This document shows positions 9,430 through 55,176 of a stretch of 55,797 bases of DNA, in pieces. This stretch comes from a virus (lineage: Duplodnaviria; Caudoviricetes), in IMG/VR virus record IMGVR_UViG_3300032087_002848, positions 1 to 55,797 of that record. One strand, 5' to 3'. The position numbers and the translations under genes are program-made. Position 1 is the stretch's first letter, and the number at the start of each line of letters is the position of its first letter. The notes below the pieces were generated by a model. That model was not told where the DNA came from. It saw only the letters and a list, made by a program, of their open reading frames with translations, and did no database searches.

Positions 9430-9496
9430 TTTGTACTCCTGTCGTGGCTAGTGTCAGACGCACCATGCGTCTGTCAGGATAAAAAAAATATACAGT

Positions 9497-9526: not shown

Positions 9527-9549
9527 TCCCGTCTCGATAGGAGACCGTG

Positions 9550-10458: not shown

Positions 10459-10472
10459 TGTCTATCCCCTCC

Positions 10473-13693: not shown

Positions 13694-13695
13694 AT

Positions 13696-31928: not shown

Positions 31929-32097
31929 TTGTTAATAGACAGTTTATACAGGTCACAGAGCCGTTGTCCGCGGGCTCTGGCAACTTAACTAAGCACTTCG
32001 GACACAAGCCCGCATTGAGGCGCTTCTGAATCACGCCCGGAGCGCCGAAGGTTTGGTTCCACTCTTCAGTTTGTGATTTCTTCGTCATTTTTCCCAC
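31897..32097 (-). CDS. Small zinc-ribbon protein
   Basis: CPKC...CINC. Confidence 0.5.
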   Translation of the reverse strand: MGKMTKKSQTEEWNQTFGAPGVIQKRLNAGLCPKCLVKLPEPADNGSVTCINCLLTIGDYVALPKM

Positions 32098-35422: not shown

Positions 35423-36936
35423 ATCCAGTAACTCCTCATTGTGTCATCTGGTTCAACTAAGTAGAGATTTTTCTTGGTCCGGGTGACCCCTACGTAAAAC
35501 ACCCGGTGCAAGTCGTCAGGAGCCGTCTCAGAGGCCTTTTGAGCCGCTGGTGATAGATCGGTATACAAGACGACGTTGTCGGCTTCCCCGCCCTTAGATC
35601 CGTGAATCGTGGACAGTGCTATGCGGGGGATTGCGTTAAACTTTTCCCCGCGTCGTAAGAGGGCCGTGATGTACGCTCTTTCGCCGCTGGGAAGTTTATC
35701 CATTGCCTCATGCCATATCATTTCATCCGTGGCTAAGAGACCGTGATCTTTTTGCAACACATCGAGGGTGACAGTGTCATCATCATCGAGAGTAGGAAGC
35801 TTTTTAAAGCCCCGCTTGACGCGATCATTGACAGACATATAACTGTAAATGGCTCGTGCGGCCTCGCCCGTGATGCTTCTACCTTTTCTCAGTTGCTCCC
35901 AACCGTTGATGGCCTCGCTCAACTTCTCCGAGATAGACCGTCTTCCGTTACGACTGTACAGGTAGCCCCGGCTCTTCAGGTCCTGTGTGGCGGCATCTAG
36001 AAAATATCCGGCTTGAGCTAGCACGAGCCACGATCCTTCAGAGAAATCTATATAGCTTGTACTAGGTATCCGTTGGACGCTGCCCGGATCTTTGCGGGGC
36101 AGATAGGTCTTTGGTACGCGGCGCGCGATGCGCTTTGCGATGCCTTCGGCTAGCGGGTGTACTGTAGCTGGTACGCGGTAGGATTGCTCTAGCACCTCGT
36201 ATCCACCATTGAGACCTATGAAATGCTCTACGTCTGCTCCGGCCCATCTATAGATAGCTTGATCGTCGTCGCCCGCGCAGTAGATGCGGTCAGAGTGCTG
36301 CTCTAGTACGTGGGCCACGTCCCATTGTAGGGGCGACAGGTCCTGTGCTTCGTCTATGAAGGTAATTGCTAGCCGTGGGCAGAAGTCTGCACCGTCACGC
36401 ACGAAAACTTCCAGCATGTCGGTGAAATCATACAGGTTAAACCTGTTCTTATATTCATTCATACTGTCGGAGACATATTTAATCGTGCTCCACGGTATGT
36501 TCATGTTGCTGTCGTTGTACTGTTGACGCAGGTCCACCTTGCGAAGACGTGCTAAGTTAATTAGCCCGATAATGGGGTTGTTGTTTTTGTTTAAGTCAAA
36601 AGCGTCTTCAGTGCTGGTGTCGGTAACCAGATCGTATCCAAGCGCATAACCCAGCTCTTTATAGTGTTCCGACTGCATAATCTGTTCTTGCCGGATGCCA
36701 CTTAGCTTGAGAGCAAAACTGTGAAGGGTCCTAAACCAAGGCAGTTGCGTTTTTTCTAGATTAAATCGCTGGCAAGCCCTGTCTATAGCCTCGTTTGCTG
36801 CCTGTCTGGTAAAGGCGAAGTACCCGATGTGAGCGGGATTAACACCTGCCGTGAGGGCCTCATCTACTTTGTTAAGCAGCGCGGTGGTCTTACCCGTTCC
36901 GGGTGGACCGTATATGCGGAATATCTTAGTATCCAT
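35419..36936 (-). CDS. UvrD/Rep-like SF1 helicase
   Basis: GPPGTGKT, TLHSF, IDEAQD, GDDDQAIY, STIHGSKGGE and YVGVTR motifs. Confidence 0.9.
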   Translation of the reverse strand: MDTKIFRIYGPPGTGKTTALLNKVDEALTAGVNPAHIGYFAFTRQAANEAIDRACQRFNLEKTQLPWFRTLHSFALKLSGIRQEQIMQSEHYKELGYALGYDLVTDTSTEDAFDLNKNNNPIIGLINLARLRKVDLRQQYNDSNMNIPWSTIKYVSDSMNEYKNRFNLYDFTDMLEVFVRDGADFCPRLAITFIDEAQDLSPLQWDVAHVLEQHSDRIYCAGDDDQAIYRWAGADVEHFIGLNGGYEVLEQSYRVPATVHPLAEGIAKRIARRVPKTYLPRKDPGSVQRIPSTSYIDFSEGSWLVLAQAGYFLDAATQDLKSRGYLYSRNGRRSISEKLSEAINGWEQLRKGRSITGEAARAIYSYMSVNDRVKRGFKKLPTLDDDDTVTLDVLQKDHGLLATDEMIWHEAMDKLPSGERAYITALLRRGEKFNAIPRIALSTIHGSKGGEADNVVLYTDLSPAAQKASETAPDDLHRVFYVGVTRTKKNLYLVEPDDTMRSYWI

Positions 36937-37273
36937 CAGGTAACTCAAAACCATGTTTGCCTAACTTTGTTTTAATCTCCTGCAAACGGACCTTTCCTAA
37001 GTTTGGTATTCGGCGTAGATCGTTTGTTCTGGCGTATTCAACAAACTCCGCTAAAAACATTTTTGTAAGATTTTCGTTACGTAGGCAGTTACCTGTCCCT
37101 CGAGTCCAATGAATGTTGCGGATCACGACAGGCATAGCCACCGTATCTACTATTTGTCGTACTCGCTCACGACTAATACCGTGTTTATTTGCGATTGCTT
37201 GCAGAGTACGCTGTTCAAACACACGCTCCCGCCAGATTTGATGATCTCTTGGAACAAAAGCCATAATCGACAT
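36926..37273 (-). CDS. Sigma70 region-4 HTH fused to an RNA polymerase alpha-CTD-like domain
   Basis: TLQAIANKHGISRERVRQI; NCLRNE...LRRIPNLGKVRLQEIK. Confidence 0.7.
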   Translation of the reverse strand: MSIMAFVPRDHQIWRERVFEQRTLQAIANKHGISRERVRQIVDTVAMPVVIRNIHWTRGTGNCLRNENLTKMFLAEFVEYARTNDLRRIPNLGKVRLQEIKTKLGKHGFELPDGY

Positions 37274-40299: not shown

Positions 40300-40340
40300 T
40301 TGACATAATCATATATATGCCCACATAATCTTATGGTCAA
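40300..40340. promoter_or_regulatory. Overlapping divergent sigma70-like promoters
   Basis: + strand TTGACA-N18-CATAAT; - strand TTGACC-N17-TATATA. Confidence 0.6.
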
Positions 40341-40350
40341 GGAGAAATTG

Positions 40351-41799
40351 ATGCAAGGTTATAAGTTCAAGACCAAGCCGTTCGATCACCAGCATAAAGC
40401 CTTAGAAGATTCGTGGGCCGCGAACTTTTATGCGCTGTTCATGGAGATGGGAACAGGCAAGTCTAAAGTGGCTATTGACACTATTGGCGCACTTTATAAG
40501 GCAAACAAAATTAAAGCGGCACTGATCTTGGCACCAAAAGGCGTGTATGACAACTGGGTAAAGGGAGAAATACCAACACATTTACCGGACGACATTGATC
40601 GGCAGGTGGTGCGTTGGACGCCGTCCACGTCGCAGAAGTTTCAGGAAGAGATGAAAGCGCTGGTGTACGAGCCTTTTGACGGCATCAAGATTTTCGTAAT
40701 GAACATAGAAGCGTTGTCCACGCCGCGTGGTACGAAGGCCGCGTATGTCTTCCTGACGAAAAACCCCAACAACATTATGATTGTGGACGAGAGCACGACT
40801 ATTAAGAACAGAAAAGCGACACGCACAAAAAACGTGATGATGCTTGCGGATGAAGCTAAATACCGCCGCATCTTAACAGGGTCTCCTGTCACCAAGTCTC
40901 CTATGGATCTATATAGTCAGTGTGCGGTCCTATCCCCGAAAGCACTAGGTTTTAACAGCTACTACGCTTTTCAGAACCGTTATGCTTTGGTTCAAAAGCG
41001 TAAGATGGGTACTCGTGCTTTCCAAGAAATCGTCGGCTATCGGCGGTTAGATGAACTAAACAGCAAGCTAGACCGCTTCAGTAACCGCATCCTCAAAGAG
41101 GAGTGCCTTGATCTGCCGGACAAGATGTACATCCGCCGGGATGTAGCTCTGACAGATGAGCAAAAACGTGTTTACTTGCAAATGAAAAAGTTAGCTCTGG
41201 CTAAACTAGAGAATGGAGAGCTAGCTACAACAGCTAGTGTCCTGACGCAGATTATGCGTCTTCAACAGATATGTTGTGGTTTCCTCCAGCCCGATGACGG
41301 CGAGATCCAGACCTTGGATAACAACCGCTTGAAGGAGCTGCTGGAAATCACCGACGAGTTACAGGGAAAAGCTATCATTTGGGCGTCATATACACACGAC
41401 ATCCAACAGATAGCTTCGGCCCTGCGCGACCGCTTTGGGCCCGAGGCGGTCGCAACTTATTATGGGGATACCCCGCAAGACGAACGGCAGGCTATTGTCG
41501 AAAAGTTCCAAGACAAAGATAGCCCGCTTCGTTTCTTTGTTGGGCAACCACGAACAGGCGGTTATGGTATTACACTAACAGCCGCAAATACGACAGTTTA
41601 TTACAGTAATAGCTACGATCTTGAAATAAGATTACAAAGTGAGGACCGCGCACACCGGATTGGGCAGCGCAACAAGGTAACTTATATCGATCTGGTATCA
41701 CCCGATACTATCGACGAAAAGATACTTATAGCGTTGCGGGGCAAAATAGATTTAGCTGGTAAGGTGCTGGGTGAAGAGGCTAAGAACTGGTTACTTTAG
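40351..41799 (+). CDS. SNF2-family SF2 helicase
   Basis: MEMGTGKS, VDEST, LTGSP, GYGITLT and QSEDRAHRIGQ motifs; AAGGAG RBS before ATG 40351. Confidence 0.9.
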   Translation: MQGYKFKTKPFDHQHKALEDSWAANFYALFMEMGTGKSKVAIDTIGALYKANKIKAALILAPKGVYDNWVKGEIPTHLPDDIDRQVVRWTPSTSQKFQEEMKALVYEPFDGIKIFVMNIEALSTPRGTKAAYVFLTKNPNNIMIVDESTTIKNRKATRTKNVMMLADEAKYRRILTGSPVTKSPMDLYSQCAVLSPKALGFNSYYAFQNRYALVQKRKMGTRAFQEIVGYRRLDELNSKLDRFSNRILKEECLDLPDKMYIRRDVALTDEQKRVYLQMKKLALAKLENGELATTASVLTQIMRLQQICCGFLQPDDGEIQTLDNNRLKELLEITDELQGKAIIWASYTHDIQQIASALRDRFGPEAVATYYGDTPQDERQAIVEKFQDKDSPLRFFVGQPRTGGYGITLTAANTTVYYSNSYDLEIRLQSEDRAHRIGQRNKVTYIDLVSPDTIDEKILIALRGKIDLAGKVLGEEAKNWLL

Positions 41800-42207
41800 G
41801 GGTAAGTAAGCCCCTATTCCGCTTAACATAGCCGGTACATAACCCCCTTGAGCAAAGCCGAAGCTACCAAAGTTGTATTGCTGCGGATTGCGGACCACAT
41901 TCAAAGCTGTAGTCATCATGTCTCGATTACGCTCGGCACGTCGCTGCGCGTCCGCTTGAAATTGATCGACATCTTCTTGTGTAAAAGACGGGCCAGTAGG
42001 AGCCGTTGGCTCTACCCCAGTAAATTCTTCTGTTCTGGGGCCCGCGTTGTACTCTTCGATTTGCCTGTTAAAAGCATCTACGTTGGCTTGATATTGGTCG
42101 TAGGCCGTGTTGTATGCGTCGATTGCATTTTGATAGGTATCCATCTGAGCTAAATCCTCAGAGGTATACCGTGCAGGCAGGAATATGGTTCCCATTGGTA
42201 AAGGCAT
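41791..42207 (-). CDS. Putative internal virion protein
   Basis: Coiled coil; FAQGG motif; last gene of the ejection operon. Confidence 0.5.
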   Translation of the reverse strand: MPLPMGTIFLPARYTSEDLAQMDTYQNAIDAYNTAYDQYQANVDAFNRQIEEYNAGPRTEEFTGVEPTAPTGPSFTQEDVDQFQADAQRRAERNRDMMTTALNVVRNPQQYNFGSFGFAQGGYVPAMLSGIGAYLPLK

Positions 42208-42209
42208 AA

Positions 42210-42944
42210 TTACCTCCGTAACAGGCTACCGACGCCGCCAAGGGGTATCGAGTAACCCATTGTAGGGCCAGCCAGCCCGACGCCTGCCCCGAACGTGCCT
42301 CCAAATGCGGGCGTTGTAAAACCAATTCCACCTACCGCAGGAACCGCTCCGACGCTGAACGGAACCTCAGCTATCTCGAAAGAGGGTTTATTAAAAGAAG
42401 TAGTGGCTTGTTCTCTAGCCGCTTGTGGGGTTACCGGAACAGGTGAAGGCGCTAACGAAGGCGCTAATGCACGATCAATTGCGTTTGCTGATAAAAAACT
42501 AAGATCTTGTCTACCAGATACGGCTGGCATCAGTCCGGGTTGTTGTTGTGCTTGATTTTTTGCAGCGATTTCTTCTGCGACAGTAAAAGGATTATAACTT
42601 GGTGTGGACGCAACAGGAGCACGGTTCCCTATCTCCGCAAAAGTATCTACCGGAGAAATCGCGCTTATTTCCGCAAAAGTATCAACAGAGGGGGTCGCGG
42701 CTGCTGGAGCCGCAGAATAGCTGTCTACACTACCAAACATGTCGGAGTAGCTATTATCAGGAGCCGCAGAATAGCTATCTGCGCTACCAAACATGTCGGA
42801 GTAGCTATTATCAGGAGAACCGCCGCCACCGCCGTCGTCTCCGCCGTCACCACCAAAAAGACCGAACTTGCTTTCAAATTCGTCTACGTGCTCAAAATCA
42901 TTATGTAGCCCGTCTGACCATCTCTTCTTAAACAGCACAGGCAT
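42210..42944 (-). CDS. Putative internal virion protein; candidate acyltransferase substrate
   Basis: Leader then SKFGLFGGDGGDDGGGGG; low-complexity repeats; Gly-rich hydrophobic C-terminus. Confidence 0.5.
   Translation of the reverse strand: MPVLFKKRWSDGLHNDFEHVDEFESKFGLFGGDGGDDGGGGGSPDNSYSDMFGSADSYSAAPDNSYSDMFGSVDSYSAAPAAATPSVDTFAEISAISPVDTFAEIGNRAPVASTPSYNPFTVAEEIAAKNQAQQQPGLMPAVSGRQDLSFLSANAIDRALAPSLAPSPVPVTPQAAREQATTSFNKPSFEIAEVPFSVGAVPAVGGIGFTTPAFGGTFGAGVGLAGPTMGYSIPLGGVGSLLRR
42706..42817. repeat. 2 x 54-bp tandem repeat encoding PDNSYSDMFGSxDSYSAA
   Basis: Seen directly. Confidence 0.85.
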
Positions 42945-43389
42945 ATCTCCTTATATCAAGCTCGGACTGTACGCCCGTGGCATACCCAACACGCTTTCCC
43001 TTCATCTGACGGATAAAATAAGCCCCGTCATAAGGATAGGTTTCAAGATAGCGCTCCGTCAGTTTCTTTTGTGTAAATCGTGCCACTTCATAAGCGTTCT
43101 GATATGGCGCAATGAAATCTATCACATACATCGTACCATCTCTTGGTCCATTACTCCAGATCGATGCTGGTAGTTTACTAGAACCATCCCTGTATCCCTG
43201 CGCCACATCTTTAGGGAGGAAGGCGTGTGTAAAAAGACCCACGGGCCGTGGTGCGTAGGGCGCGGGCTTATACAGGATGTCCATCTTCCCGTGTGCGATA
43301 GCCGGTACAATTAAGCGATCAAGATCGTGAATATACCAATCACGGTGAAATTCAGATTTCAGCATCAATTTTATGGCGTCGGAGATCAT
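42928..43389 (-). CDS. hlyC: RTX toxin-activating lysine acyltransferase (HlyC/RtxC, TAAT family)
   Basis: SEFHRDW (cf. HlyC SPLHRNW), IVPAI (VLPAI), PVG (PVA), VIDFIAPY (FIDWIAPF), FIR (AIR). Confidence 0.8.
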   Translation of the reverse strand: MISDAIKLMLKSEFHRDWYIHDLDRLIVPAIAHGKMDILYKPAPYAPRPVGLFTHAFLPKDVAQGYRDGSSKLPASIWSNGPRDGTMYVIDFIAPYQNAYEVARFTQKKLTERYLETYPYDGAYFIRQMKGKRVGYATGVQSELDIRRYACAV

Positions 43390-46300
43390 CCCATTAAGCT
43401 TCCTATGCCCTGACCCTGCCTAATTAAGCCTGAAGCAATGTCTGTCGGGAACATCGCAGCATAACGGCTCCTGTCAACCGGGCCGCTGGCCGCGGGAGGC
43501 GGCGTAATTGGCCTCGGCTGAACAGGAGCAGCCGACGCAACACTGGTTGTGGGAGCTGCCGGTTGCGACGGTAAGTTGTTGGGTTGAAGAAGTTCTGGTC
43601 TGACTGAGCTTTGATCGTCCGAAAGGCCCATACGTTCAAGCATCTCTTCTCTAGTTATTCCAGTACCACGGTCTTCATCCTCATACATTTCACGAATGAT
43701 GTAAGGGGATTGACCTGCGGCTACTTCAAAACCTTTATCTGATAGGATGCGTTGAATACGACTTAGTTGGTTTTGCTTTTGTTTTGCGTTAGTTGCTGGT
43801 CGTAACAAAGTAGCAGCCAATTCTGGATCAGCAAAGAGCATCTGCATCGCTTCCATCCGCTTTGAGGAAGGATTGTGTTTAAACATATCTAAAATAAAGC
43901 GCTTACCTGCCGCCGCTGCACTAATTGCGCCTGTTCCCGATTCTCCACCCATCAAAGCTTTATAGGCTTTTGAACCACCTGCAAGACCAACCATTCCGAC
44001 ATAAAAATCGAAGATGGGTCCCGCCTGTTGAATCAATTCAGGATCATCTAATTTACCCGCAGCGTCTGCTGCCGCTAACCGTACCATTTGATTAGAGATG
44101 GTACGCATACGAGTAATCTGGTTTTTATCCATTATCCCGTATTGTTTAGCTATATCGACTAGAGACTGAGATCCACCACTTAACCCAGCGCCTTGTCCTT
44201 TAACTGGACTAAACATTATTTTGTGAAAAGTTATAGGATCAAAGGTTTTGATGGACTCGCCACCCGCGTTCATAAACGCATATTGCAATATAGCGTTTTC
44301 AAAACCCTCGTTTATTTTTGCCCGAATTGCATCTTGCTCTTCTTTAGGAAGAAGCTTGCCGTCGGGGCCTCTGTACTTGACCGTGGTTAAACGGAACAAA
44401 CGCTTTAGGCCGCCCACAGGGTCTTTAACAGTGCCTTTTTTAGGCACAAAATTCATAGCTTCTGAAATAGCCGCGGTTGGGGAACTGTTACCAATTAGAC
44501 CCGCAAGATAAGATTGACTGTCGGCTAATTTCTTTGATTCCGCGGAGCGAGCATCATAAACCTCAAAGGTGCGTTGAGCTGCAATTGCATTATCTAGATC
44601 CTGTTCTAGGGCCGGGAACCGCGATAGAGTTTCCGCGTTCTCTTGTTTCCACCTAGCTAAAGCGTCAGCATTTACCTGACCTTCTCTGGAGTGGCCCGGA
44701 GGAAATACGGACTTTTTCCGCGCATCACGGATAGCGCTTTCCATGATGTTGTTAATGGTTGTGAAGGTTTTTGTTGCTCCTTCAAAACCTTGTTCTTGGG
44801 CAAACTCAGCTATGCCTTGTAACTCTTGTATCCGAAGATCGGTAACATCCGGATTTCCGCGGATAAACTGTTGTGTTAAAAGCTCTGGAGGAATACGTCG
44901 CGCACCCATTGCTGTTTCGGCACGAGCTTTACCAACTATGGAACGAGTATAAACATCGTTTAATGCTGCGGAATAGCTACGTGCTACATCGTAAGCGTCA
45001 TTAACACCATCTTCAACGGTGTTCATGTCATCCAAGATAGCTTCGGCTATCTCACCAAATTGCCGAGCTTGGTTAGCCGTGCCTCGACGCGTTGTAGCAC
45101 CACTATATAAGTTAGAGGCGTCATTTAAAACTTCTCGTCTAAGTTTCACAAGTTCGTCCGCTGTTACAGGAGAAACTCTGGATGGGTCGGCTTTTGCTAT
45201 TTCTAGCTCGAGTATTTTCGCTTGTGCGCGGGCCGCAGGAAGCATTGTGCTCTTTTGAGCATTAGTGAACCTGTTACCATACAGCATTGCAAACTTAGAT
45301 TTATCTTCAAGTTGAGAAGAAATCTTTTTTGCAGCAGCTAGACGGTTTGAAAGCGATGCGCCCTCTCCCGCCTCCTGATTTATAAGCGTGTTAAGAGCGT
45401 TGACAGAATCGGCATCTTGTCTGGTTAACCGGCTAATAACACCTTTTTGTTCAGCAATACCTTGACGAATATCCAAACCAAGCCGTTGTTTCATGTTTTG
45501 TACGGTTTTATGGAGCGCTGGAGCGGCGGCTATAAACTCATCGCGATATTCGGGTAATATGTCTTGTAAAAGCTCGTCATATTTAAGGATAAAGGAAGGT
45601 GTAACACTTCCCTCAATAATTTCTTGAGGATTAAATACTGTAAATCTACCCACCTTATCCCACAGAGCTTTTTCTCTACGACGAGCAAGTTCTAACTGAC
45701 TGTCTATGGTATCCGCCAACATGCCTGAAAAAGCTTGCTGGCTTCTTTCGTTAATTGGTCCCTTTAACAATTGTTGAGCCGCTTTTATCCGCGCATCAAC
45801 GGCAGCCGTCAAACGAGTTTTAAGGGCATCATCAAACATTCCTCGGCGCAAAACAGCGGCTGTTTTTAAAGCATCCTGAGAGCCTTCTGATATTAGACCT
45901 TTGATCCAGTTATCAAAAAACTCTTTTGCGTTACGGTCAGCTTTCATTTTAGTGGCCATTAATTCAGGATTTTGTTTAGCCATTGCGGCTTCAACCATCA
46001 TCAAAAGGCCTGTATCGTCTTCTAACCGTTGACCGGCAGTAAATTCAACGTCAGGGAACACTTCGGATAAAATCGCCCGAGTTTCTGCGTTATTAAGATC
46101 GGCCATCATTTTTTCATAATTGCCGCCGTGAAGCTCGAACAACTCGTTCATCCGGTTAAAGAGCTTCCGTTGCTTACCTGTAGCAACCTTACCAATTAGA
46201 ACGTCACCAGCGTCGCCATTCTCTTTTACAATGTTGTAAGCTTTTGGCATAAGCTTACTTAAAGTAGCCGCGAAGGTATTACCCCCGATAAGTTCACTGG

Positions 46301-47201
46301 CTAACCTTGGACCTGTTTGTCCCGGATATGTTGCTTCTGCATATCTTGCACCTACACCCGACCCCAAAACAGGTACAGCTTCGCCCAAAACAGTTAAACC
46401 AGCGCCTACTTTTGAAGCTTTAGCTGATCGGCCCATGCCTTCGATCATGTTTTCGATAGCCGCCGTCATCCGTGTGGCAACAGGCGCTGAAGCATCTTCC
46501 GCTAAATTAGCAATAAAGTCCCGTGCAGCGCGATTCGTGAACTGTTTCATAAGAAAAGGGAACTGTATGCCCGCGGTACCACCGCCAAGGGTACGCACCA
46601 TTTCTACGTTGGCTTTTTGCCCCGGTAATATTGGAACATCTGGGCCAAAAATACCTTCTTCTAAAGCATCTGCACCTTCATATAAAAGCATACCACTGCC
46701 GATAAAGGCCGCTAAAGGAGGTGCGGCCTGTAAACCAAACTGTAATATACTTGTGGGCGGCTTACGAAAGGTTCTTGCAGCAGTCATTTGTGCTGCTTTT
46801 GTGCCAGCAGCCACACTAGGTGCAGTTTTGAAAAACTCAGAAAAGAAGGCTCCGGGTAAAGAGCCTATTTCAGCGTTAGATAATAGCGCGGAGATAGCAT
46901 CAGGGTTCTGAAATCGAACAGCACGTTCCGCGGGGAGCATATCGCGGATAGGCTTCTGTTCTCCATTAACTTCCATTGTGTATTGAGGTGAAAGCTGGTC
47001 AAAAAAGGTAGCTTTCCCTGATTTGATCAGGTCATAGTTGAAGAAATTGGGGTCTTCCTGAATTTGATCAGCAAAATCTACCGAAAAGGTGTTAACCAAA
47101 TCTTTGGCCAAATAATCGGAAGCTTCCTGCCCGAAGTTAAGGCGAAAATCGTCAATTATCTCAGGTTTGAGCTCAACTTTATTGATCGTGAGATCAGCCA
47201 T
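43386..47201 (-). CDS. Large DNA ejection/internal virion protein
   Basis: 1271 aa, helical, Gly-rich hydrophobic stretches; podoviral ejectosome position. Confidence 0.6.
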   Translation of the reverse strand: MADLTINKVELKPEIIDDFRLNFGQEASDYLAKDLVNTFSVDFADQIQEDPNFFNYDLIKSGKATFFDQLSPQYTMEVNGEQKPIRDMLPAERAVRFQNPDAISALLSNAEIGSLPGAFFSEFFKTAPSVAAGTKAAQMTAARTFRKPPTSILQFGLQAAPPLAAFIGSGMLLYEGADALEEGIFGPDVPILPGQKANVEMVRTLGGGTAGIQFPFLMKQFTNRAARDFIANLAEDASAPVATRMTAAIENMIEGMGRSAKASKVGAGLTVLGEAVPVLGSGVGARYAEATYPGQTGPRLASELIGGNTFAATLSKLMPKAYNIVKENGDAGDVLIGKVATGKQRKLFNRMNELFELHGGNYEKMMADLNNAETRAILSEVFPDVEFTAGQRLEDDTGLLMMVEAAMAKQNPELMATKMKADRNAKEFFDNWIKGLISEGSQDALKTAAVLRRGMFDDALKTRLTAAVDARIKAAQQLLKGPINERSQQAFSGMLADTIDSQLELARRREKALWDKVGRFTVFNPQEIIEGSVTPSFILKYDELLQDILPEYRDEFIAAAPALHKTVQNMKQRLGLDIRQGIAEQKGVISRLTRQDADSVNALNTLINQEAGEGASLSNRLAAAKKISSQLEDKSKFAMLYGNRFTNAQKSTMLPAARAQAKILELEIAKADPSRVSPVTADELVKLRREVLNDASNLYSGATTRRGTANQARQFGEIAEAILDDMNTVEDGVNDAYDVARSYSAALNDVYTRSIVGKARAETAMGARRIPPELLTQQFIRGNPDVTDLRIQELQGIAEFAQEQGFEGATKTFTTINNIMESAIRDARKKSVFPPGHSREGQVNADALARWKQENAETLSRFPALEQDLDNAIAAQRTFEVYDARSAESKKLADSQSYLAGLIGNSSPTAAISEAMNFVPKKGTVKDPVGGLKRLFRLTTVKYRGPDGKLLPKEEQDAIRAKINEGFENAILQYAFMNAGGESIKTFDPITFHKIMFSPVKGQGAGLSGGSQSLVDIAKQYGIMDKNQITRMRTISNQMVRLAAADAAGKLDDPELIQQAGPIFDFYVGMVGLAGGSKAYKALMGGESGTGAISAAAAGKRFILDMFKHNPSSKRMEAMQMLFADPELAATLLRPATNAKQKQNQLSRIQRILSDKGFEVAAGQSPYIIREMYEDEDRGTGITREEMLERMGLSDDQSSVRPELLQPNNLPSQPAAPTTSVASAAPVQPRPITPPPAASGPVDRSRYAAMFPTDIASGLIRQGQGIGSLMG

Positions 47202-47203
47202 GT

Positions 47204-49963
47204 TTAGTCGCTCCCCTCGACTGCTCCAGCACTTTTATTAACTCTTGGAAGATTACCCGTAATCCCACCACCGGAAGAGGAACTAACACCCGCGCCGCGG
47301 CCCCCGATGTTTGCTTCGTAAGCAAGAATTGCTGCGGTGTATTCAGCAATAAGTTTTTCGGTATCCATTACTGCAAGTCTAGCTTGTTCTACTGTTTCCG
47401 AACTAAATGCACCCGGTACTTGTTCGGCTCTATCTAATATATATTTCGCACGAGCATAACCGGAAGCCAAAGAATTTCTTACTGTGCGGAGTTGCTGAAG
47501 GGCACCCACATCAGACTTTGCCCCGCTTGGAAGGAAGCCCTTAACTTCTTGCATAATAAGCTCTACATCCAAAGCAAAGACTTTACCTTTAGTATCCGCT
47601 CTAAGGACATTTTGCGTCCGACGACCAAGGGACGCAAGTTCTTTATCAGCAGCACTTGTGATCTTGCTCTCTCTACCGGCATAGCCCGTACCCAGACCCA
47701 ATTCTGCAAGCTGTCCAGCAATACCATTGAAGAAGCGGTTAAGCGAAGAAACAAAACCTTGCGATTTAGTGTAATCCAAGCCCGTAATAATAAAGGTTGG
47801 ATCAGCCGTGGCCCGCTCAATATTAACCGTGCCGTCTGGGTTGATCAGAGGCACATCTTGCGACGGACCGAGCTTTTGCATCTCCTCTTGCGATAAATCC
47901 AACGTGTTAAGAGGAACAGGTGATTTAAGGTTAGAATTACCCAATATACGCTTTTTAATTGCTTCCTTAACAAAATCAGGTAGCTGTCGTTTCTGCATAA
48001 ACCCACGGGCATCCGGAACAGGGGCCGTGTAAGCTGCAATCATGCTATCCATTATCCTGTCATCACCGCCCTCGGCATAGGCATCAATAGCCTTAACACC
48101 TTCTGCAACTTCACCAAGAGAGAAATAACGAAGGGCTTTGTCAGCGCTGCCCTTGCCAAAGATATCTGGCGGAGTGTCAGCCTTTTCATAAGGACGAAAG
48201 GCATCCGCACCAAAAGCATCTTTAAGGGAACTTATTTCTTTTTCGTTGAGATAAAGAGGGGTTCCCGCAGGTATACTCTGTCCTTTAATAACCATGTCTT
48301 TGGTATTAATGACAGGCTTAGTGGACTCTGGACCTTGTGTTGTGGTAACACCACCCAGTGTACCACCAAGGCCACCTTCATCTACAGGTGTAATGGCTTT
48401 TTCGTAAGCGTCCGTGCCTTTTCTATACACTCTGCGGCTACCATCAGGGAAAACGATGTTTACGTCTTCTTTCTCTTCTGCTTTGTAAGGTTTAACCGAG
48501 GTTGCAAAACCTTCAATTTTATCCGCTTCTCCCGAATCTATTGCAATAATAGTTCCGGGCAGTTGTTGCTGACCCTCATAAAAAATAGGTTTTGTTACTT
48601 CGTAAAACTTCTTAGCTCCACCCTCACCGCTTACTTCTTTGTAGGGTTTCAAAGCATCCGGATCTATTTTGGCCACCTGATTTGGACGTAGGTTTAAAAT
48701 TTTACCTTTGGGGTATTCTACCCCATCAAGCACTATAGGCTTTTGTGTGACAAAAGCTTTGGTGGCTTTTACCTCTGTAGTTTTAGATTTAAGCCTTTGT
48801 AAGGCTCGAGCTTCTTTAGCAGCAACTTCTGCCGCCAACTTAGTTTCAGCCGACTGCAACGCAGCTAAATCAAGGGCGCGCTCTTCCTTCTTAGAAGCTT
48901 TTTCGGCCTTCGCCTGCTCCGCCACTCTAGCAGCAATAGTCTGTGGTAGCTTAGTTTGTGCCGCAACAAAAGCAAGCCGCTCTGCCGGGCTCATACCAGA
49001 TCGCTCTCCGGGCACTCCACCCGCATAAGCAAGACCCATCTGCGCTATATCAAAAAGTATTTGCGCCTGCATGGCGTCTTTATCTTTTTCGAGTTGCGCG
49101 GCGCGTTCTTCGGGATCACCTAAACCATACTTACGATAAATTGCTTTTTGAGCGTCCATCAGTTGACCAAGACGTGTTCCGTCGCCTTGAGTTGGTGCGG
49201 GCACCGCGTCGTTGTTCGCAGCTAATCCGTAAAGCGCTAAACTGTCTTCAAGGCCCAGATCAAACCCACCACCAGCTACCCGGTTCCTATTCTCTGGAGC
49301 AAAGTATTGAACCGGCTGGTTGTATCCGCGGCGGACCAGCCCGCCTTGGTTAAAATTTACGGGAGGCGGGCCCTCCATACCCATAGGAGGCATCTCTTCT
49401 GGTGGCGGTTCAGACACCGTAGACATAATACCTCCGGCCATATCGCCTTCAACCGGTTGAGTCATCTCAGCTTCGGCCAAGCCCCCAATGCCTTGGTCCA
49501 CGGCGTTCATCATCATTACCGGCTGAAGAAGAGCCAAAACAGATTCAGGGGTTTCTCCCGCATCTTCTGGACCGACTATTTCAGCAAGCTCTTCGTAGCG
49601 TGATTCTAACGGAGCCTCATCGCCCCGAATGGAGTTAATTACTGTCTCAAAGTCTTCAGCGTCATCTAAGTTACTGATGCTCTGTTGTGCAGAACCGAGC
49701 ATTTGCTCCAGAACTGCTGGGTCCATCGACTGCATAGCAACAGAAGCCGCTTCAGGAGGAACTGCATCTTGAGCCGCCATGCCGCCAGCCATGCCGGGAG
49801 CCGCAGCCATAATCCCAGCCATGCCGCCGTCCTGCATAAACTTCACACCTCGACCCATCAAGATGTCTTTTTGAGTTATCTTGCCGTCGTTATTTAAGTC
49901 GGGAAACCCGGCTGCGCCGCCATTCCGGAACATTTGACGATCCATTACACCTCGGTTCATCAT
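47204..49963 (-). CDS. Internal virion/ejection protein
   Basis: 919 aa; EF-hand-like DLNNDGKITQKD; several xxGG motifs. Confidence 0.6.
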   Translation of the reverse strand: MMNRGVMDRQMFRNGGAAGFPDLNNDGKITQKDILMGRGVKFMQDGGMAGIMAAAPGMAGGMAAQDAVPPEAASVAMQSMDPAVLEQMLGSAQQSISNLDDAEDFETVINSIRGDEAPLESRYEELAEIVGPEDAGETPESVLALLQPVMMMNAVDQGIGGLAEAEMTQPVEGDMAGGIMSTVSEPPPEEMPPMGMEGPPPVNFNQGGLVRRGYNQPVQYFAPENRNRVAGGGFDLGLEDSLALYGLAANNDAVPAPTQGDGTRLGQLMDAQKAIYRKYGLGDPEERAAQLEKDKDAMQAQILFDIAQMGLAYAGGVPGERSGMSPAERLAFVAAQTKLPQTIAARVAEQAKAEKASKKEERALDLAALQSAETKLAAEVAAKEARALQRLKSKTTEVKATKAFVTQKPIVLDGVEYPKGKILNLRPNQVAKIDPDALKPYKEVSGEGGAKKFYEVTKPIFYEGQQQLPGTIIAIDSGEADKIEGFATSVKPYKAEEKEDVNIVFPDGSRRVYRKGTDAYEKAITPVDEGGLGGTLGGVTTTQGPESTKPVINTKDMVIKGQSIPAGTPLYLNEKEISSLKDAFGADAFRPYEKADTPPDIFGKGSADKALRYFSLGEVAEGVKAIDAYAEGGDDRIMDSMIAAYTAPVPDARGFMQKRQLPDFVKEAIKKRILGNSNLKSPVPLNTLDLSQEEMQKLGPSQDVPLINPDGTVNIERATADPTFIITGLDYTKSQGFVSSLNRFFNGIAGQLAELGLGTGYAGRESKITSAADKELASLGRRTQNVLRADTKGKVFALDVELIMQEVKGFLPSGAKSDVGALQQLRTVRNSLASGYARAKYILDRAEQVPGAFSSETVEQARLAVMDTEKLIAEYTAAILAYEANIGGRGAGVSSSSGGGITGNLPRVNKSAGAVEGSD

Positions 49964-50985
49964 CCGAATAAACCCCCTGCTAATTTACTGGCACCCGCTG
50001 CTGCGGAAAGACCCGCTATACCTAAACCAAGATATTGTTGTGCGGGCGATACGTTAGGCGCGGTAGACGCTGCAATAGTCTGCTGCGTAGACGGCGCACC
50101 TTTATAAATGTCTGAAAGATACGCAAACCGTTGATAGGGCTCATACAACTGAGCAAGCTCGCTCTGCCGTTGTGCTTCCAAAGTGGCTTGCTGTTGAGCC
50201 TGCTGCTGTTTTCCAAGCTCAAATTGAGTTGTGATGTCGCGAAGAGCAGACTGTTGAGCAAGTTCGCCAAGGCTGGCCTGCTGTAGACCAAGCTGACCAA
50301 GCGCCTGACCGGTTTGCAACCCAAGCTGACCAAGCGTTTGACCGGCCTGCAAGCCCAGCGATCCAATGCCTTGAGCCGCGGCCAACCGGCGTTGCTGCTC
50401 GTTTTGTGCCGCCTGTTGCGCCTGCATAAAGTTTTGAGCCTGAGATTGAGCCAAAGCAGCCGCTTCGTTGCGCCCGATTTCCGCTTGCTGGATCGCGGCC
50501 CGTGATCCGCCGAACGCGGACGGTCCACCGGGAGCACCGACAGCGCCTAAATTGGCCGCGGCCCGTTGTTGAGCAAAACTACGGCTTATTTCGTCCTGAA
50601 CCGCCTGTTGATAGGGATTCATGTATTGAGCTATTTGCGCCCCACTTACAGGAGCGGCACCTTGCTGGTACATTTGACCAGCAGTGCCATAAGCACCTTG
50701 TATATATGGCGTAGCTGTTTGCCCTGCACCTATAAGTGTAGGTGCGGCCATACCCATTGTTTGACCAGAAGTATCAAGATAAGGCTGGTAACCCCCAATA
50801 CCGCCGGAAGCAGGAGAAGCCGCTTGAATAGCAGCCTGTTGTAGCCCAGACATCTGAGCTACTTGTTGGGTTGGAAGCGTGATCCGTTGGTTGGCTAAAC
50901 CTTTAGCGCTTTCAAGAAGCCCTAGCTTGTAAGCCTCAATTTCAGGGGCTTCACGGACTATTTGTACTTGGGTTTCAGTAGCCAT
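49960..50985 (-). CDS. DNA transfer/pilot protein
   Basis: Q/A/G-rich; YMNPYQ..V, AFGGSR; hydrophobic C-terminus. Confidence 0.65.
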   Translation of the reverse strand: MATETQVQIVREAPEIEAYKLGLLESAKGLANQRITLPTQQVAQMSGLQQAAIQAASPASGGIGGYQPYLDTSGQTMGMAAPTLIGAGQTATPYIQGAYGTAGQMYQQGAAPVSGAQIAQYMNPYQQAVQDEISRSFAQQRAAANLGAVGAPGGPSAFGGSRAAIQQAEIGRNEAAALAQSQAQNFMQAQQAAQNEQQRRLAAAQGIGSLGLQAGQTLGQLGLQTGQALGQLGLQQASLGELAQQSALRDITTQFELGKQQQAQQQATLEAQRQSELAQLYEPYQRFAYLSDIYKGAPSTQQTIAASTAPNVSPAQQYLGLGIAGLSAAAGASKLAGGLFG

Positions 50986-52805
50986 TACGCCATTCTCCGC
51001 CCGCGGGACTCAAGATTTCGCATCATCCCGTACATGTTGTTTATGCCCTGACGGACGTTCCCGTTTCCAAGCCCGCGGACTGCGTCAGTTGTCATAACGA
51101 ACTCACCCGGCATGAGCATTGCACGAACACTGTCCTTACCGGGTATACCTTCGTCAGGCATGATACCACCTACACGACGTGGGAAGATCTCTCCACCTTC
51201 GGCAGCGGCCTGAATAGGCCTATACATGTTGCGGTAACGGGCGGTTCCAAAAGGGTCTGGGTTGTAAGTGCGAGGACCGGGTAGTCCCGCGTATTGTGTA
51301 GCAACCTCATAAGGTCCTTCAGCGCTTCGGAGCTCGTAGTTAGCAAGCCTATATCTGGTAGGGTCTTGTTCGAGAAGGTCTGATCCCGAGGGTCCTTGGA
51401 TAGCGTCGATATCCAGCTCTTCCTGTGGTGGAGTATCAAAGGCCCCCGCAGCATATGCCGCGCCACCTGCTAATGCAGCGGCTGGCAAGTAAGTGCGGAT
51501 AAGGCTCGGAGCGGCTTCCGCGGCTAGTTGCTTGGCCATATCTAAGGATATCCGGCCTTGGTTAGCTTGATAAATTTCTGTAGCAGTTGGCCCGGATGGC
51601 AAGAAAGCGTTTTGTAGCCCTTCTACAAAGCCAACGTCGTCGCCGGGTGTAACAGCGCCTTTGAGGCTTTCAAAGAAGCCGGGTGTTTCTGGAACATTAA
51701 CGCTTGGAGCGGCGGGAGCGGCGGGAGCGGCGGGAGCAGTGGGGGTAGAAAGAGAAACTTGTTGGAAAGCTGCTCCACTATCTGCTACTGGCATAACCGT
51801 TCCGTCGGGGGCAACCGCATATGGCCTACCGTAAGCGTCAAGACCTGTTGAACCGGGCTGGTTAACAAGAGATGATGCAGGCTGGTTAGTGACAGATGTT
51901 GCGGCTTCCCTTACAGAAGGAACGGCGGCTTTAGGTACGTCCGAGCCGAACATGTCCATGTATCTAGTGTCTTGGTAAGCAGTTCCACCTTCTGAAGCAG
52001 GACCCGCAGTCATGTTTGACATGGAGATACCAGAGAAGTCCCCACCAAGTGCGCTACCAATGCTCTTAAATCCTGCGCTCAAGTTAGCGGGATTAGCAGC
52101 CTTACCTATAGAAGAGAAGAACCCTTGTCCGGACAGAGCCCCGGAAGCGCCAGCAAAGAGAGCACCTGTGCCACCAGAAATAAGTGCGGATTTAAATGCG
52201 TCCCCTATACTACCGCCTTGTATCAACGTCGCGATACCGGAACCCAGTGCTGCACCATAAATAGGACCAAATATAGCTGTTCCTACAATCGGTAGGACAA
52301 TCGGAGCTACCTTCTTAGCTACCTTTACAACACCTTTAACAGCCTTTTTAAGAGTTTTTGTAACCTTTTTGGCTGCCTTAGATATTGATTTAACACCTTT
52401 TTTAAACGCTCGGCCAATACTACCAAAGGAGAAAAACTCCGGCATACCGGTTTCCGGGTTGATCGAGTTAGCACCAGAACCGACAACGTAGCGTTCAGGG
52501 TCTTCAACACCTAATTCGCGTAAATGATCAAAAATAGAATCTCGAAGCTTTGGGTTGTTTTCAATCAGGGCTTTTGGAACAACCAGCTCACCGGTCTCGA
52601 CGTGAGCTACAGTGTCATCACCAAAACGACCGTATGAGGCCATTCTGTCTGCCACGTCTTGGAAATTAGCAATACCGGAAGTACCGAACTCTTCTTCGGT
52701 TTCAGCGCGTTCTAGAGCCTCTAGCTCATCGTCTTCCAGATAGAAGTTGCCAATACCACCTTCTGGAAAAGAAAACTCTTCTTGTTTAACCGCGCTTTTT
52801 GCCAT
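50985..52805 (-). CDS. Internal virion protein with membrane-active segment
   Basis: DTVAHVETGE, INPETGMPEF, Lys-rich amphipathic helix, DSVRAMLMPGEFV. Confidence 0.6.
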   Translation of the reverse strand: MAKSAVKQEEFSFPEGGIGNFYLEDDELEALERAETEEEFGTSGIANFQDVADRMASYGRFGDDTVAHVETGELVVPKALIENNPKLRDSIFDHLRELGVEDPERYVVGSGANSINPETGMPEFFSFGSIGRAFKKGVKSISKAAKKVTKTLKKAVKGVVKVAKKVAPIVLPIVGTAIFGPIYGAALGSGIATLIQGGSIGDAFKSALISGGTGALFAGASGALSGQGFFSSIGKAANPANLSAGFKSIGSALGGDFSGISMSNMTAGPASEGGTAYQDTRYMDMFGSDVPKAAVPSVREAATSVTNQPASSLVNQPGSTGLDAYGRPYAVAPDGTVMPVADSGAAFQQVSLSTPTAPAAPAAPAAPSVNVPETPGFFESLKGAVTPGDDVGFVEGLQNAFLPSGPTATEIYQANQGRISLDMAKQLAAEAAPSLIRTYLPAAALAGGAAYAAGAFDTPPQEELDIDAIQGPSGSDLLEQDPTRYRLANYELRSAEGPYEVATQYAGLPGPRTYNPDPFGTARYRNMYRPIQAAAEGGEIFPRRVGGIMPDEGIPGKDSVRAMLMPGEFVMTTDAVRGLGNGNVRQGINNMYGMMRNLESRGRRMA

Positions 52806-53039: not shown

Positions 53040-53320
53040 GGAGTGCTCACCGTAACTGTTCCAACTGCGGCAGTTGCGCTAGTGCTTCCAGAAAATATAT
53101 CATTTTGGCGCACAATACGCAAAAACCCATTTTCCTCAAACAAATCGCCAACTTCCAATGTGTTAGCAACCGAGTCAGACGGGACATCTTGTATGTTTAA
53201 GAGAGGGTTCCGTTGCTCGTCTATGACCCTGTCTAAGTTCCGGGCTAACTGGTTTACAAAGTTCTGGTTATATATATCCGGAGCTACCGGTAAAATGGTA
53301 CGGACAATTTTTGTACTCAT
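53036..53320 (-). CDS. Small tail protein
   Basis: LPVAP..Y...QL.R.L pattern; follows the tail hub gene. Confidence 0.55.
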   Translation of the reverse strand: MSTKIVRTILPVAPDIYNQNFVNQLARNLDRVIDEQRNPLLNIQDVPSDSVANTLEVGDLFEENGFLRIVRQNDIFSGSTSATAAVGTVTVSTP

Positions 53321-55176
53321 CGCCTACCGTCCGGTCTCGCATCCAAACGCGGCGTCCCTAACCGCCAATTCACACCCGTGTCGGCATTGCTGATCTTGAA
53401 GTTCATGCTGCGGCCACGGGCCCGTAAGAACACCTGATTGGTATAGATGTCAGAGCTACTCTCTTCTACACTACCAGATACCGTCTCTGTAACAGCCTTT
53501 CCGTTAAAATCACGAGACTGCATGGACATAGTTACTGCCGGGGTAGCATCCGTAGACCCGTCAAAGGACAAATCAGGGATAACGCGGCGGATCAGCATGA
53601 ACTGGTCCCCGTCACCTATATCAAAATCTGCCGACTGAATATATGCCGGAACGGCACTAGCCGGAGCCGTGCTGCCGTCATCTAACCCATATTCGTGGTT
53701 ATAAAGATAATAGTCCGTGCTAGCAGACTGCGGATAGCTGCGTTGACCCGACGCTCGGTCATTCCAAGCCGTACGGGATAACGTACCGTAATACCAAATC
53801 TGCTGCCCGTAGTTATAGACAACATACCGATCAATCTCGCTTGATCCGGCAGAACAGTAGTACCACCAAACCTCTGTCTGGCTAGCTAAACTACCGGCAA
53901 AAAACTTAAAGGATTGTTGAGGGTTGATGTTGTTAAACACATACTCTCGAACAGAGCATGGAATGGGCTGTATACGACCATCATAAACATAAAAGTTCTC
54001 TTGGCCCATCCAGAAAACCAAGTCGTTCACGCTGATAGCCACGTTAGGTCCAGCAATCCTGACGTTGTCCGCTAAAAGTGCTGTTCCAAACACATACGGC
54101 GCACCGGTAAACTGTACCGAATGCAAAGTGTGGTCTGTCCAAACCAGTATCTGGCGGCTTGTACGCACCGCAGTCATAATCTCAGAGCCTTGTGACAGAC
54201 GTAAATCGCCTGCCGTATTCGTAGCTGTAGGGGTCCAATCGGTGGCCGACTCCTGACTAGACCAGCGGATAAGCAGTGGATCTTGGTCCGCGGACCCTAC
54301 AGGGTTGCACCCAAAAGCTAAAACGTGGCGATCTACTTCAGATACCAGCGTCTTTCTAGCAATAGTTGGTACGTCAGATGCACCGGACAAGCTGCTTAAA
54401 AGCACGGCACGACTGCTAGTCGTACCTGTTGCGTCCCAATAGTAGATTGCGCCGTCAGCTATATTACATATCAGGTCTTCACCAAAATCGTCTGCAAACC
54501 AAAGGCGAAGTGTCTGCCCTGCCAAAGAGCCTGCGCCCGAACCCCACGTAAAACGGCCCCATGTACCAGCACCCCAACCCGGCCCCAGAATAGTGGAGTT
54601 TAGCCCTACACTAATTTGAAACTCTGCCTGACCAGAAGAACCACCACCCGATACACCGCCGGATGTAGCCGAACCTCCAGTATCTGCTGTAAATGTCGTA
54701 GTTGTAGGTGCAGAAACAACCACAAGCTCTTGGTTTAAGTCGTCCGTAGTTAAGCCATCTACGGCGGTTAAACCAGAAAGTGTTACATAATCCCCGACCT
54801 GTGCGCCGTGGGCCGCGGACGTTGTTACGGTGATCACGCCGCTACCTGCACCACCCGAGGTGTTAATAGGGTCGGTAGGTAGGCTTACAGTCGAGCGGAT
54901 TGGTGTGATGTCATAAAGTGCGCCAGAATCCTCAAGGTAGATCTTTTTTTCGCTACCCATAAAGAGCAGGTTTTCAGAGGACAATGTAGTGAAATCGTGC
55001 ATAAACCGCACGTTGCCTGCAAATGGCGAAGAACCCGTCTTGGCCCACCCGCCAATGCGCTCCGGATACCCGTAAGTAAAGCGGATGTAGTTGCCGTCGA
55101 ACCAACCGCCTTCATTAGAGTAGTTCGTACCCTCTCTATTTATTCCGGGTTTAAATTGGAGCTTTGTTAGCGGCAT
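53317..55176 (-). CDS. Tail hub/nozzle (P22 gp10/T7 gp12-like) protein
   Basis: MPLTKLQFKPGIN, IRWSSQE..DW, beta-propeller-like repeats, C-terminal PDGRR. Confidence 0.7.
   Translation of the reverse strand: MPLTKLQFKPGINREGTNYSNEGGWFDGNYIRFTYGYPERIGGWAKTGSSPFAGNVRFMHDFTTLSSENLLFMGSEKKIYLEDSGALYDITPIRSTVSLPTDPINTSGGAGSGVITVTTSAAHGAQVGDYVTLSGLTAVDGLTTDDLNQELVVVSAPTTTTFTADTGGSATSGGVSGGGSSGQAEFQISVGLNSTILGPGWGAGTWGRFTWGSGAGSLAGQTLRLWFADDFGEDLICNIADGAIYYWDATGTTSSRAVLLSSLSGASDVPTIARKTLVSEVDRHVLAFGCNPVGSADQDPLLIRWSSQESATDWTPTATNTAGDLRLSQGSEIMTAVRTSRQILVWTDHTLHSVQFTGAPYVFGTALLADNVRIAGPNVAISVNDLVFWMGQENFYVYDGRIQPIPCSVREYVFNNINPQQSFKFFAGSLASQTEVWWYYCSAGSSEIDRYVVYNYGQQIWYYGTLSRTAWNDRASGQRSYPQSASTDYYLYNHEYGLDDGSTAPASAVPAYIQSADFDIGDGDQFMLIRRVIPDLSFDGSTDATPAVTMSMQSRDFNGKAVTETVSGSVEESSSDIYTNQVFLRARGRSMNFKISNADTGVNWRLGTPRLDARPDGRR

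Follow-up and report, generated by a model that had tools for sequence, protein, structure and literature searches.

A toxin-activating acyltransferase family gene and its oligo-glycine-tagged partner gene in marine podophages

The acyltransferase gene and its surroundings

The stretch of DNA analysed here (hereafter, the window; 55,797 nucleotides) is the whole of the IMG/VR virus record IMGVR_UViG_3300032087_002848, whose completeness is estimated at 96%. The focus of this work is a small gene which encodes a protein of the HlyC family, the toxin-activating acyltransferases (TAATs). It runs from 43389 to 42928 on the minus strand (stop codons interrupt the plus-strand reading throughout), encodes 153 amino acids (aa) and is embedded in a block of genes for mostly large proteins, directly upstream of a gene for a low-complexity protein of 244 aa which carries an oligo-glycine tag near its N-terminus. 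As an initial annotation of the sequence had noted, the gene overlaps both of its neighbours: its start overlaps the stop of the upstream 1271-aa gene by 4 nucleotides (nt), and its stop overlaps the 244-aa gene by 17 nt. The new point which we describe is that the enzyme has a constant, oligo-glycine-tagged partner, and this pairing suggests that the phage may place a lipid on a protein which it injects. The features of the locus are as follows.

40333..41799, plus strand: SNF2 helicase gene, convergent, which bounds the block and served as a survey anchor (Pfam SNF2-rel_dom, Helicase_C)
41791..42207, minus strand: 138-aa protein, last gene of the block; its single Lys is the final residue; C-terminal G-I-G-A-Y motif
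42210..42944, minus strand: 244-aa low-complexity protein, proposed acyl acceptor; overlaps the enzyme gene; leader and oligo-Gly/Asp tag; C-terminal G-V-G-S-L
42822..42944, minus strand: leader and tag, residues 1-41 of the 244-aa protein; G-G-D-G-G core at nt 42840-42854
42928..43389, minus strand: HlyC/TAAT-family acyltransferase, 153 aa (Pfam PF02794, profile, fold, dyad)
43386..47201, minus strand: putative large internal or ejection-type protein, 1271 aa (homology to the fused protein of enzyme-less relatives)
47204..49963, minus strand: 919-aa block protein (conserved synteny)
49960..50985, minus strand: 341-aa block protein (synteny; G-I-G-type motifs)
50985..52805, minus strand: 606-aa protein with a tape-measure-like C-terminal motif (phrog_934, E 6.5e-6, residues 541-591)
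53317..55176, minus strand: virion structural protein, 619 aa, of the tail-hub or 'packaged DNA stabilization' type, which heads the block (phrog_3287, E 1.7e-77)

The family assignment of the 153-aa protein draws on several lines of evidence. The Pfam HlyC model PF02794 matches it with an E-value of 1.9e-13 and 50.8 bits against a cut-off of 25, and a six-frame search of the whole record returned one HlyC match only (50.6 bits). All of the signatures listed in the initial annotation (SxxH, PAI, PV(G/A), IDFIAP and a late Arg) are present, namely as S12-x-x-H15, P29-A-I, P49-V-G, I90-D-F-I-A-P95 and R127, and these residues are invariant in 36 of 36 aligned homologues of 54-79% identity, except for I31 and V50. 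Family members are described as using a His/Asp dyad and acyl-acyl carrier protein (acyl-ACP) as the donor, in the available portion of PMC8510554. The corresponding residues are His15 (nt 43345-43347) and Asp91 (nt 43117-43119), both of which are invariant in the same 36 homologues and at least 90% conserved in a set of 40 diverse ones. Compared as a single sequence with ApxC (PDB 4whn), the enzyme scores an E-value of only 0.18, with H15 and D91 placed on the ApxC His and on the Asp of I-D-W-I-A-P; a profile built from the 40 homologues aligns the same columns at E 5.5e-31 (110.5 bits, profile positions 5-143 of 148). An AlphaFold model of moderate confidence (pLDDT 67.7; residues 127-153 below 50, the C-terminal 27 residues being disordered) finds chains of 4whn as its top three PDB matches in Foldseek (E 2.7e-5, prob 1.00, TM 0.53), followed by ordinary GNATs at E-values above 0.08. 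By sequence, profile and predicted fold, the protein is thus a genuine HlyC/TAAT acyltransferase with an intact dyad, as had initially been proposed; the absent fold or misplaced catalytic residues that would have refuted the assignment were not seen.

The window holds neither of the components that define an RTX toxin operon of the hlyCABD type, an RTX protoxin with Gly/Asp nonapeptide repeats and type I secretion genes, which again agrees with the initial annotation: the RTX repeat PF00353 has no match in the window at E<=1, and none of the type I secretion families (ABC, MFP, TolC) was found among 50 window open reading frames (ORFs) scanned with Pfam. The carrier protein family PF00550 is likewise without a match in the window, and therefore the acyl donor would be that of the host.

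The genome carries a portal and adaptors, both of the SU10 type, a GroES gene, a family A polymerase and the convergent SNF2 helicase. Its terminase shares 54-63% identity with those of the Pelagibacter phages HTVC027P and HTVC023P and of phage 023Pt_psg01, which places the genome in the HTVC023P-type group, and on this basis it is a near-complete marine podophage of that type. The group is globally abundant and among the most abundant in the ocean, according to the available portion of a preprint (bioRxiv 10.1101/2019.12.14.876532). On the minus strand, and across the record ends, the gene order is tail fibres, 619 aa (phrog_3287), 606, 341, 919 and 1271 aa, enzyme, 244 and 138 aa, and the order from the 619-aa tail-hub-type protein to the 1271-aa protein is kept in relatives. 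In P22 (gp7, gp20, gp16) and T7 (gp14-16), too, the ejection block follows the tail-hub gene, with proteins of rising size. In the related phage DSL-LC04, the gene at the position of the 619-aa protein is annotated 'stabilization protein', the counterpart of the 606-aa protein 'tail tape measure protein', and the homologue of the 1271-aa protein 'DNA transfer protein'. The nearest named cluster in the Atlas was P22 gp16 (at 0.92, with 159 shared features), which serves as a lead only. A fold model of the 919-aa protein has a pLDDT of 59.8, and every fold match to this low-confidence model has a TM of about 0.1 and is meaningless; a relaxed Pfam search of the block (E<=5) returned only noise. 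The claim that the enzyme is built into an ejection operon holds in so far as a block of large proteins does follow the tail hub, but the label 'ejection' stems from position, size and the DSL-LC04 annotations and is not backed by a family match.

Each of the six block proteins other than the enzyme (606, 341, 919, 1271, 244 and 138 aa; 41791-52805, minus strand) contains a short motif of the form [Q/G]-G-I-G-[S/N/G/A]-[L/F/Y], and in three of the six a G-I-G-type motif forms the extreme C-terminus. A looser G-I-G pattern matches 2 of 13 other structural proteins checked (162 and 298 aa). Related motifs, of the form F-A-K-G-G...G-I-G-S, are also present in enzyme-less relatives. The motif may serve internal proteins as a signal for packaging or for interaction. 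The C-terminal G-I-G-S-L was considered as a recognition site for the enzyme and rejected, given the related motifs in phages that lack it.

The tagged partner gene across phage lineages

Relatives of the enzyme are frequent in metagenomic data, with 65 in a metagenome protein set (52-97% identity, all of 136-170 aa) and a further 122 more distant ones in a representative library. A search of viral contigs with an alignment of eight sequences confirmed 94 places, of which 80 were kept as survey loci; ORFs were called by a simple script and clustered by BLASTP, and the enzyme gene was found by the picker in 75 of the 80 loci, with enzyme lengths of 133-174 aa. The largest set, group A (55 loci), has the gene order of the window, with the enzyme after the big protein. 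Group B comprises 7 loci, in which genes for the portal, head and adaptors come first, then a 690-aa hub protein similar to gp10, a phrog_308 'internal virion protein', a 199-aa protein and the enzyme; the enzyme is followed by a 260-360-aa paralogue of the 199-aa protein and then by proteins of 194, about 500 and at least 1221 aa, the last of these with a DdrB-ParB domain. Group C (17 loci) has the enzyme between portal and head genes, and its portal resembles those of Mx8, Mx9 and Brucella phages. In a single further locus of a different phage type (L068), the enzyme gene lies two genes before the terminase.

A fifth context is provided by the cultured Roseobacter phage CRP-235, whose gp30 is annotated 'putative toxin-activating lysine-acyltransferase' and is part of the structural module, in which it precedes a protein of 491 aa, a lysozyme and three large proteins (844-1304 aa). 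This phage was found only when the more distant enzymes of groups B and C were used as queries; against GenBank phages, neither tblastn of the window enzyme nor megablast of the region gave a match. Phage HlyC homologues are therefore linked to virion genes in four lineages and in CRP-235, and the initial expectation that a neighbourhood survey would show such a link was borne out.

The upstream neighbour of the enzyme varies: it is the big protein in 41 group A loci, group B has the 199-aa protein there, group C has the portal, and small ORFs are found elsewhere. A same-strand gene directly downstream, in contrast, is present in 75 of 76 cases (the window and the 75 loci), at a spacing of -53 to +10 nt. 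The proteins encoded by these partner genes fall into at least eight BLASTP families with dissimilar, low-complexity bodies, and nearly all of them have a similar start. Leader-type partners begin with 12-45 residues, the last two of them hydrophobic, and continue with an Asp-containing glycine run (for example C-F-G-G-D-G-G, L-L-G-G-D-G-G, C-Y-Q-G-D-G-G or C-F-D-G-D-G-D), and leaderless partners start directly with M-G-G-D, M-S-G-D, M-A-G-D or, in gp29 of CRP-235, M-G-G-G-G-G-D. A tag pattern, which is ad hoc and was written after the data had been seen, occurs in 68 of 75 direct downstream partners; among the 686 other ORFs that reach 100 aa, 13 have it. Four of these 13 are themselves partners, in loci whose enzyme the picker had missed, five are the group B paralogues encoded upstream of the enzyme, whose sequence opens with M-C-M-G-G-G-G-G-D-G-G, and four are unrelated acidic proteins. 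In a six-frame translation of the window, the tag motif occurs once in a real gene. Within the partner family of the window (21 sequences), conservation is confined to the first ~35 residues and the C-terminus, and K6 and K26 are invariant only within this one family. The 138-aa protein at the end of the block (family f31) is found in only 6 survey loci and hence is no constant partner. The conserved link is the one between the enzyme and a downstream, oligo-glycine-tagged gene, which corresponds to a detached C-terminal module, and not the one to the 1271-aa protein as such. The initial proposal that the phage acylates an ejection protein of its own is upheld as to the place of the enzyme in a virion block, with the tagged gene rather than the 1271-aa protein as the conserved partner.

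Enzyme and tag were also compared for presence and absence in 36 loci fetched by means of the conserved SNF2 helicase, a survey which overlaps the first one and is no independent evidence. Both are present in 17 loci and both are absent from 9, in which the sequence beyond the helicase is sufficient for a call. In 3 loci the tag is present and the contig ends exactly at the expected position of the enzyme gene, and 6 loci are too short for a call. One locus, on the same contig as L058, has the enzyme with an untagged, Lys-rich partner. A tag with a demonstrably absent enzyme was found in 0 of the 36 loci. The enzyme is absent from four complete related genomes (HTVC023P, HTVC027P, 023Pt_psg01 and DSL-LC04), and in the two read here for gene order, DSL-LC04 and HTVC027P, the big protein abuts the helicase.

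The enzyme-less loci point to the origin of the partner. In three of them (L096, L110 and L116), whose helicases are 87-88% identical to that of the window, a single protein of 1506, 1635 and 1524 aa, respectively, adjoins the helicase. Residues 1-1262 of the 1271-aa protein of the window align with residues 1-1270 of the 1506-aa protein at 56% identity, and the profile of the 244-aa family aligns to residues 1317-1504 of the same protein, that is, to its C-terminal ~190 residues. Several members of the 244-aa family also have BLASTP matches to the last 45-230 residues of the three fused proteins, and these end in F-A-K-G-G-x-V-x-x-G-I-G-S, as does the 244-aa family. Among the enzyme-bearing phages, the big protein is thus split at a linker, with the enzyme gene between the two parts, and its C-terminal module, now separate, has acquired a leader and a tag.

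In a maximum-likelihood tree of 71 enzyme sequences, group B (99/95) and group C (95/98) each form one branch. L068 nests inside group A (clade support 100/99), although its branch is long and its exact place unsure, together with loci whose tags read R-W-C-F-G-G-D-G-G and R-W-V-L-G-G-D-G-G; its own tag, R-W-C-F-D-G-D-G, and its W-x-D-x-L leader resemble the tags of these clade-mates. Enzyme and tag thus appear to move together.

Outside phages, bacterial relatives of the enzyme (11 loci, 24-41% identity) stand in mixed contexts and have no bearing on the phage case. Among them, small ORFs beside the enzyme gene in a Pseudomonadota metagenome-assembled genome (L127, 6608-6859 and 11272-11454) resemble double-glycine leader peptides, and in five Roseobacter-group genomes (L129, L130, L134, L135 and L137, at ~4950-6440) a protein of ~320 aa starting M-G-Y/F is encoded directly upstream. 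Unusual architectures occur in three metagenomic proteins: P0147 (633 aa) fuses the enzyme domain to a methyltransferase and a QueC-like region, P0096 (412 aa) is a tandem pair of enzyme domains, and P0107 (988 aa) has the enzyme domain at its C-terminus and a weak match to a giant phage 'endolysin' family.

Some further features of the window concern neither enzyme nor partner. A tail-fibre-like gene runs off both record ends (3-563 and 55377-55796, minus strand; phrog_4492 on a 139-aa piece), so that the linear record probably represents a complete, circularly permuted genome opened within this gene. Between the primase and UvrD helicase genes lies a gene for a 115-aa protein (36926-37273, minus strand) which combines sigma-70 region 4 (E 9.8e-8) with an RNA polymerase alpha C-terminal domain (E 3.4e-5). 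Two cell-wall hydrolase genes are found on the minus strand, one for an endolysin-type protein (13241-13726; phrog_465, with a sub-threshold Peptidase_M15_4 match) and one for a SleB-type Hydrolase_2 protein outside the structural module (32085-32507).

Acceptor site, proposed mechanism and rival explanations

We propose that the enzyme attaches an acyl chain from host acyl-ACP to the tagged module, where the lipid would support the role of that module among the internal proteins during DNA delivery, and we regard the chances of this being correct as about even. An active TAAT enzyme and a short N-terminal tag would have been recruited in marine podophages as a portable cassette of two parts. 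While the late genes are expressed, the enzyme would transfer a fatty acyl group from host acyl-ACP to the tagged protein, either at the tag or beside it; once lipidated, this protein would be packaged with the other internal proteins and, upon infection, would help the DNA-delivery apparatus to become anchored in the host envelope or inserted into it.

The family membership, the intact dyad, the strict pairing of the enzyme and tag genes and the split of the big protein are shown; catalysis, donor, acceptor protein, virion location and entry role are all inferred. Several observations weigh against this proposal. The placement of the block in the virion would follow from gene order and the annotations of others; for the proteins of 341, 919, 1271 and 244 aa, no Pfam or PHROG family was matched. 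Many of the survey loci are closely related, with 62 distinct enzyme sequences, and the SNF2-anchored survey shares contigs with them. Besides its post hoc definition, the tag pattern is missing in 7 of the 75 partners, five of which look like variants by eye, and the window's own 244-aa protein has no BLASTP match to the fused proteins. At L058, on the contig shared with L092, the gene after the enzyme (9443-10879) encodes an untagged 478-aa protein with 50 Lys. As regards the acceptor, the tag families have no conserved lysine in common, Lys is wholly absent from four complete partners of group C (L076, L077, L079 and L085), a group A partner (L036) has a single one, and no protease that would remove the leader has been identified.

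The lysine counts bear directly on the chemistry. The known TAAT reaction transfers the acyl group from acyl-ACP to the epsilon-amine of a specific lysine, often in a Gly-Lys context, and its recognition rules are described as poorly understood in the available portion of PMC8510554. Since four partners have no Lys, this reaction on internal lysines, which is the only documented chemistry of the family, cannot apply to them, and the internal-lysine acylation that was initially envisaged has become doubtful. L058 might, on its Lys-rich sequence, be a case of classical lysine acylation; the 478-aa protein is followed there by a 221-aa protein that ends in G-I-G-S-M.

Two candidate acceptor sites were rejected. 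A conserved lysine ahead of the tag was considered, but the basic site that lies a few residues ahead of the glycines holds K in some lineages and R or Q in others. A lipobox of the lipoprotein type does not fit either, given that there is no hydrophobic signal peptide and that the window and two tag families have Leu or Val instead of the Cys. What all tag forms have in common is the glycine/Asp run, either at the N-terminus or right after the hydrophobic pair. Because leaderless forms (L060-L063) and leader-bearing forms (L057, L064) occur within one partner family, the comparison suggests that the mature partner protein starts at the glycine run. Since lysine is not conserved in the tags, we favour as the acceptor the amine of a processed N-terminus, which would be generated by Met removal or leader cleavage, over an internal lysine. 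We know of no TAAT that acylates an N-terminal amine. A more specific version of the proposal, in which the enzyme and the oligo-glycine tag form a self-contained, horizontally mobile 'lipidation kit' that is placed before or into an internal virion protein, is considered rather unlikely. The enzyme would then acylate the alpha-amine of the glycine-rich N-terminus, laid bare by Met removal in leaderless forms and by leader cleavage in the others, and the lipid would help to seat the injected protein in the host envelope, as a counterpart of the myristoylated penetration peptides of animal viruses.

The enzyme might instead acylate internal lysines of its large neighbours, the 1271- or 919-aa proteins, with the tagged protein as a bystander or adaptor. 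Both proteins are lysine-rich (72 and 58 Lys) and contain 7 and 4 Gly-Lys pairs, respectively, which is the context of the acylated HlyA lysines in the available portion of PMC8510554, and the enzyme gene overlaps the 1271-aa gene. However, the upstream neighbour differs by lineage and the downstream tagged gene is the constant one, and enzyme-less relatives retain the big protein, so that we consider acylation of the large neighbours to be clearly unlikely. A target in the host is an explanation to which we assign a still slimmer chance. The enzyme would then be packaged or made early and would acylate a host protein in order to take over or disarm the cell, as has been proposed for the enzymatic domains of injected polyvalent proteins. 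Such a role is in line with P0107, in which the enzyme domain is part of a 988-aa protein, with the large group B protein, whose DdrB-ParB domain is typical of polyvalent proteins, and with the argument that solo GNATs beside late genes may be capsid-deployed (PMC5512222). That article is concerned with GNATs and not with the TAAT family, its available portion containing neither 'HlyC' nor 'acyltransferase', and a host target leaves both the strict tag pairing and the co-transfer of enzyme and tag unexplained.

It is also conceivable that the protein, while keeping the fold, transfers no acyl group and helps the tagged protein in assembly or as a chaperone, and the phrog_308 gene beside the cassette in group B could be seen in this light. 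The dyad, Ser12 and Arg127 are, however, invariant or nearly so across 30-97% identity, which is unexpected for a non-catalytic role, and hhalign found no profile similarity between the enzyme and the phrog_308-type protein of group B (probability 0.2%), whose profile has no PDB match; a chaperone role is consequently as improbable, in our estimate, as a host target. Finally, hlyC has been counted among the abundant phage-encoded virulence genes of marine viromes (PMC7003362, in its available portion), and in keeping with that reading the gene could be a host-derived 'virulence' moron which activates an RTX toxin of the host. Its translational coupling inside a late structural block, its pairing with a phage protein in every lineage and the lack of any RTX repeat in the genome make this origin very improbable indeed. 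The lipidation of the tagged module thus remains the explanation which we prefer.

Relation to known systems and significance

The phage enzyme belongs with HlyC, CyaC and ApxC (PF02794; 4whn) by sequence, profile and fold, and has the same His/Asp dyad. Its gene is located directly upstream of that of its presumed substrate, as hlyC is before hlyA. In contrast to the HlyC systems, the phage locus has neither an RTX protein nor genes for type I secretion. The partner of the phage enzyme is a phage protein of low complexity which bears an oligo-glycine tag at its N-terminus and lacks a conserved lysine, and the phage enzymes are shorter (133-174 aa as compared with 183 residues in the deposited ApxC chain). 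Another parallel is CdiC, a TAAT which lipidates the receptor-binding domain of class IV CdiA at Lys1467 with 3-hydroxydecanoate (PMC8510554, in its available portion). In both cases, the TAAT would act on a non-RTX, largely unstructured substrate that must engage the envelope of another cell, and the presence of the enzyme co-varies with the acceptor feature across loci. CdiC differs in that its target is a defined lysine of a bacterial effector; the setting described here is that of a phage, with an undefined acceptor and no need for a lysine.

Penetration proteins of animal viruses, such as picornavirus VP4, reovirus mu1N and polyomavirus VP2, are N-myristoylated by the N-myristoyltransferase of the host at a Met-Gly start. 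If the proposal is true, the phage partner would resemble them as an internal capsid protein with an acylated, glycine-type N-terminus that is released to the membrane at entry. It would be unlike them in that the phage brings its own enzyme, of another family, and in that many of the tags stand behind a leader.

Such genes have been recorded before, mainly by name. One figure legend in the pelagiphage preprint (bioRxiv 10.1101/2019.12.14.876532, in its available portion) names 'HlyC, toxin-activating lysine-acyltransferase', although the gene is not in HTVC023P or HTVC027P themselves, and the available portion of PMC7003362 counts hlyC among the abundant 'toxin' genes carried by phages. A 2022 review of ejection proteins (PMC8954989) contains no word beginning with 'acyl'. 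In the literature searched, which left most subscription journals outside its coverage, we found no functional account of a phage HlyC or of acylated or lipidated ejection proteins, and none of an internal virion protein together with an acetyltransferase. The initial remark that no description was known therefore stands as far as function is concerned, but HlyC genes of marine phages have been annotated both in print and in GenBank.

The passage of DNA of short-tailed phages across two membranes is only partly understood. If the proposal is true, phage-encoded lipidation of an injected protein would be a new principle in DNA entry, and the toxin-activating acyltransferases would have a wider range of substrates and perhaps a wider chemistry, the N-terminal alpha-amine being, in the more specific version, a new type of acceptor for this family. 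The enzyme and its tag would also offer a compact pair for protein lipidation in bacteria. The cultured phage CRP-235 carries such an enzyme-tag pair, which makes the idea testable.

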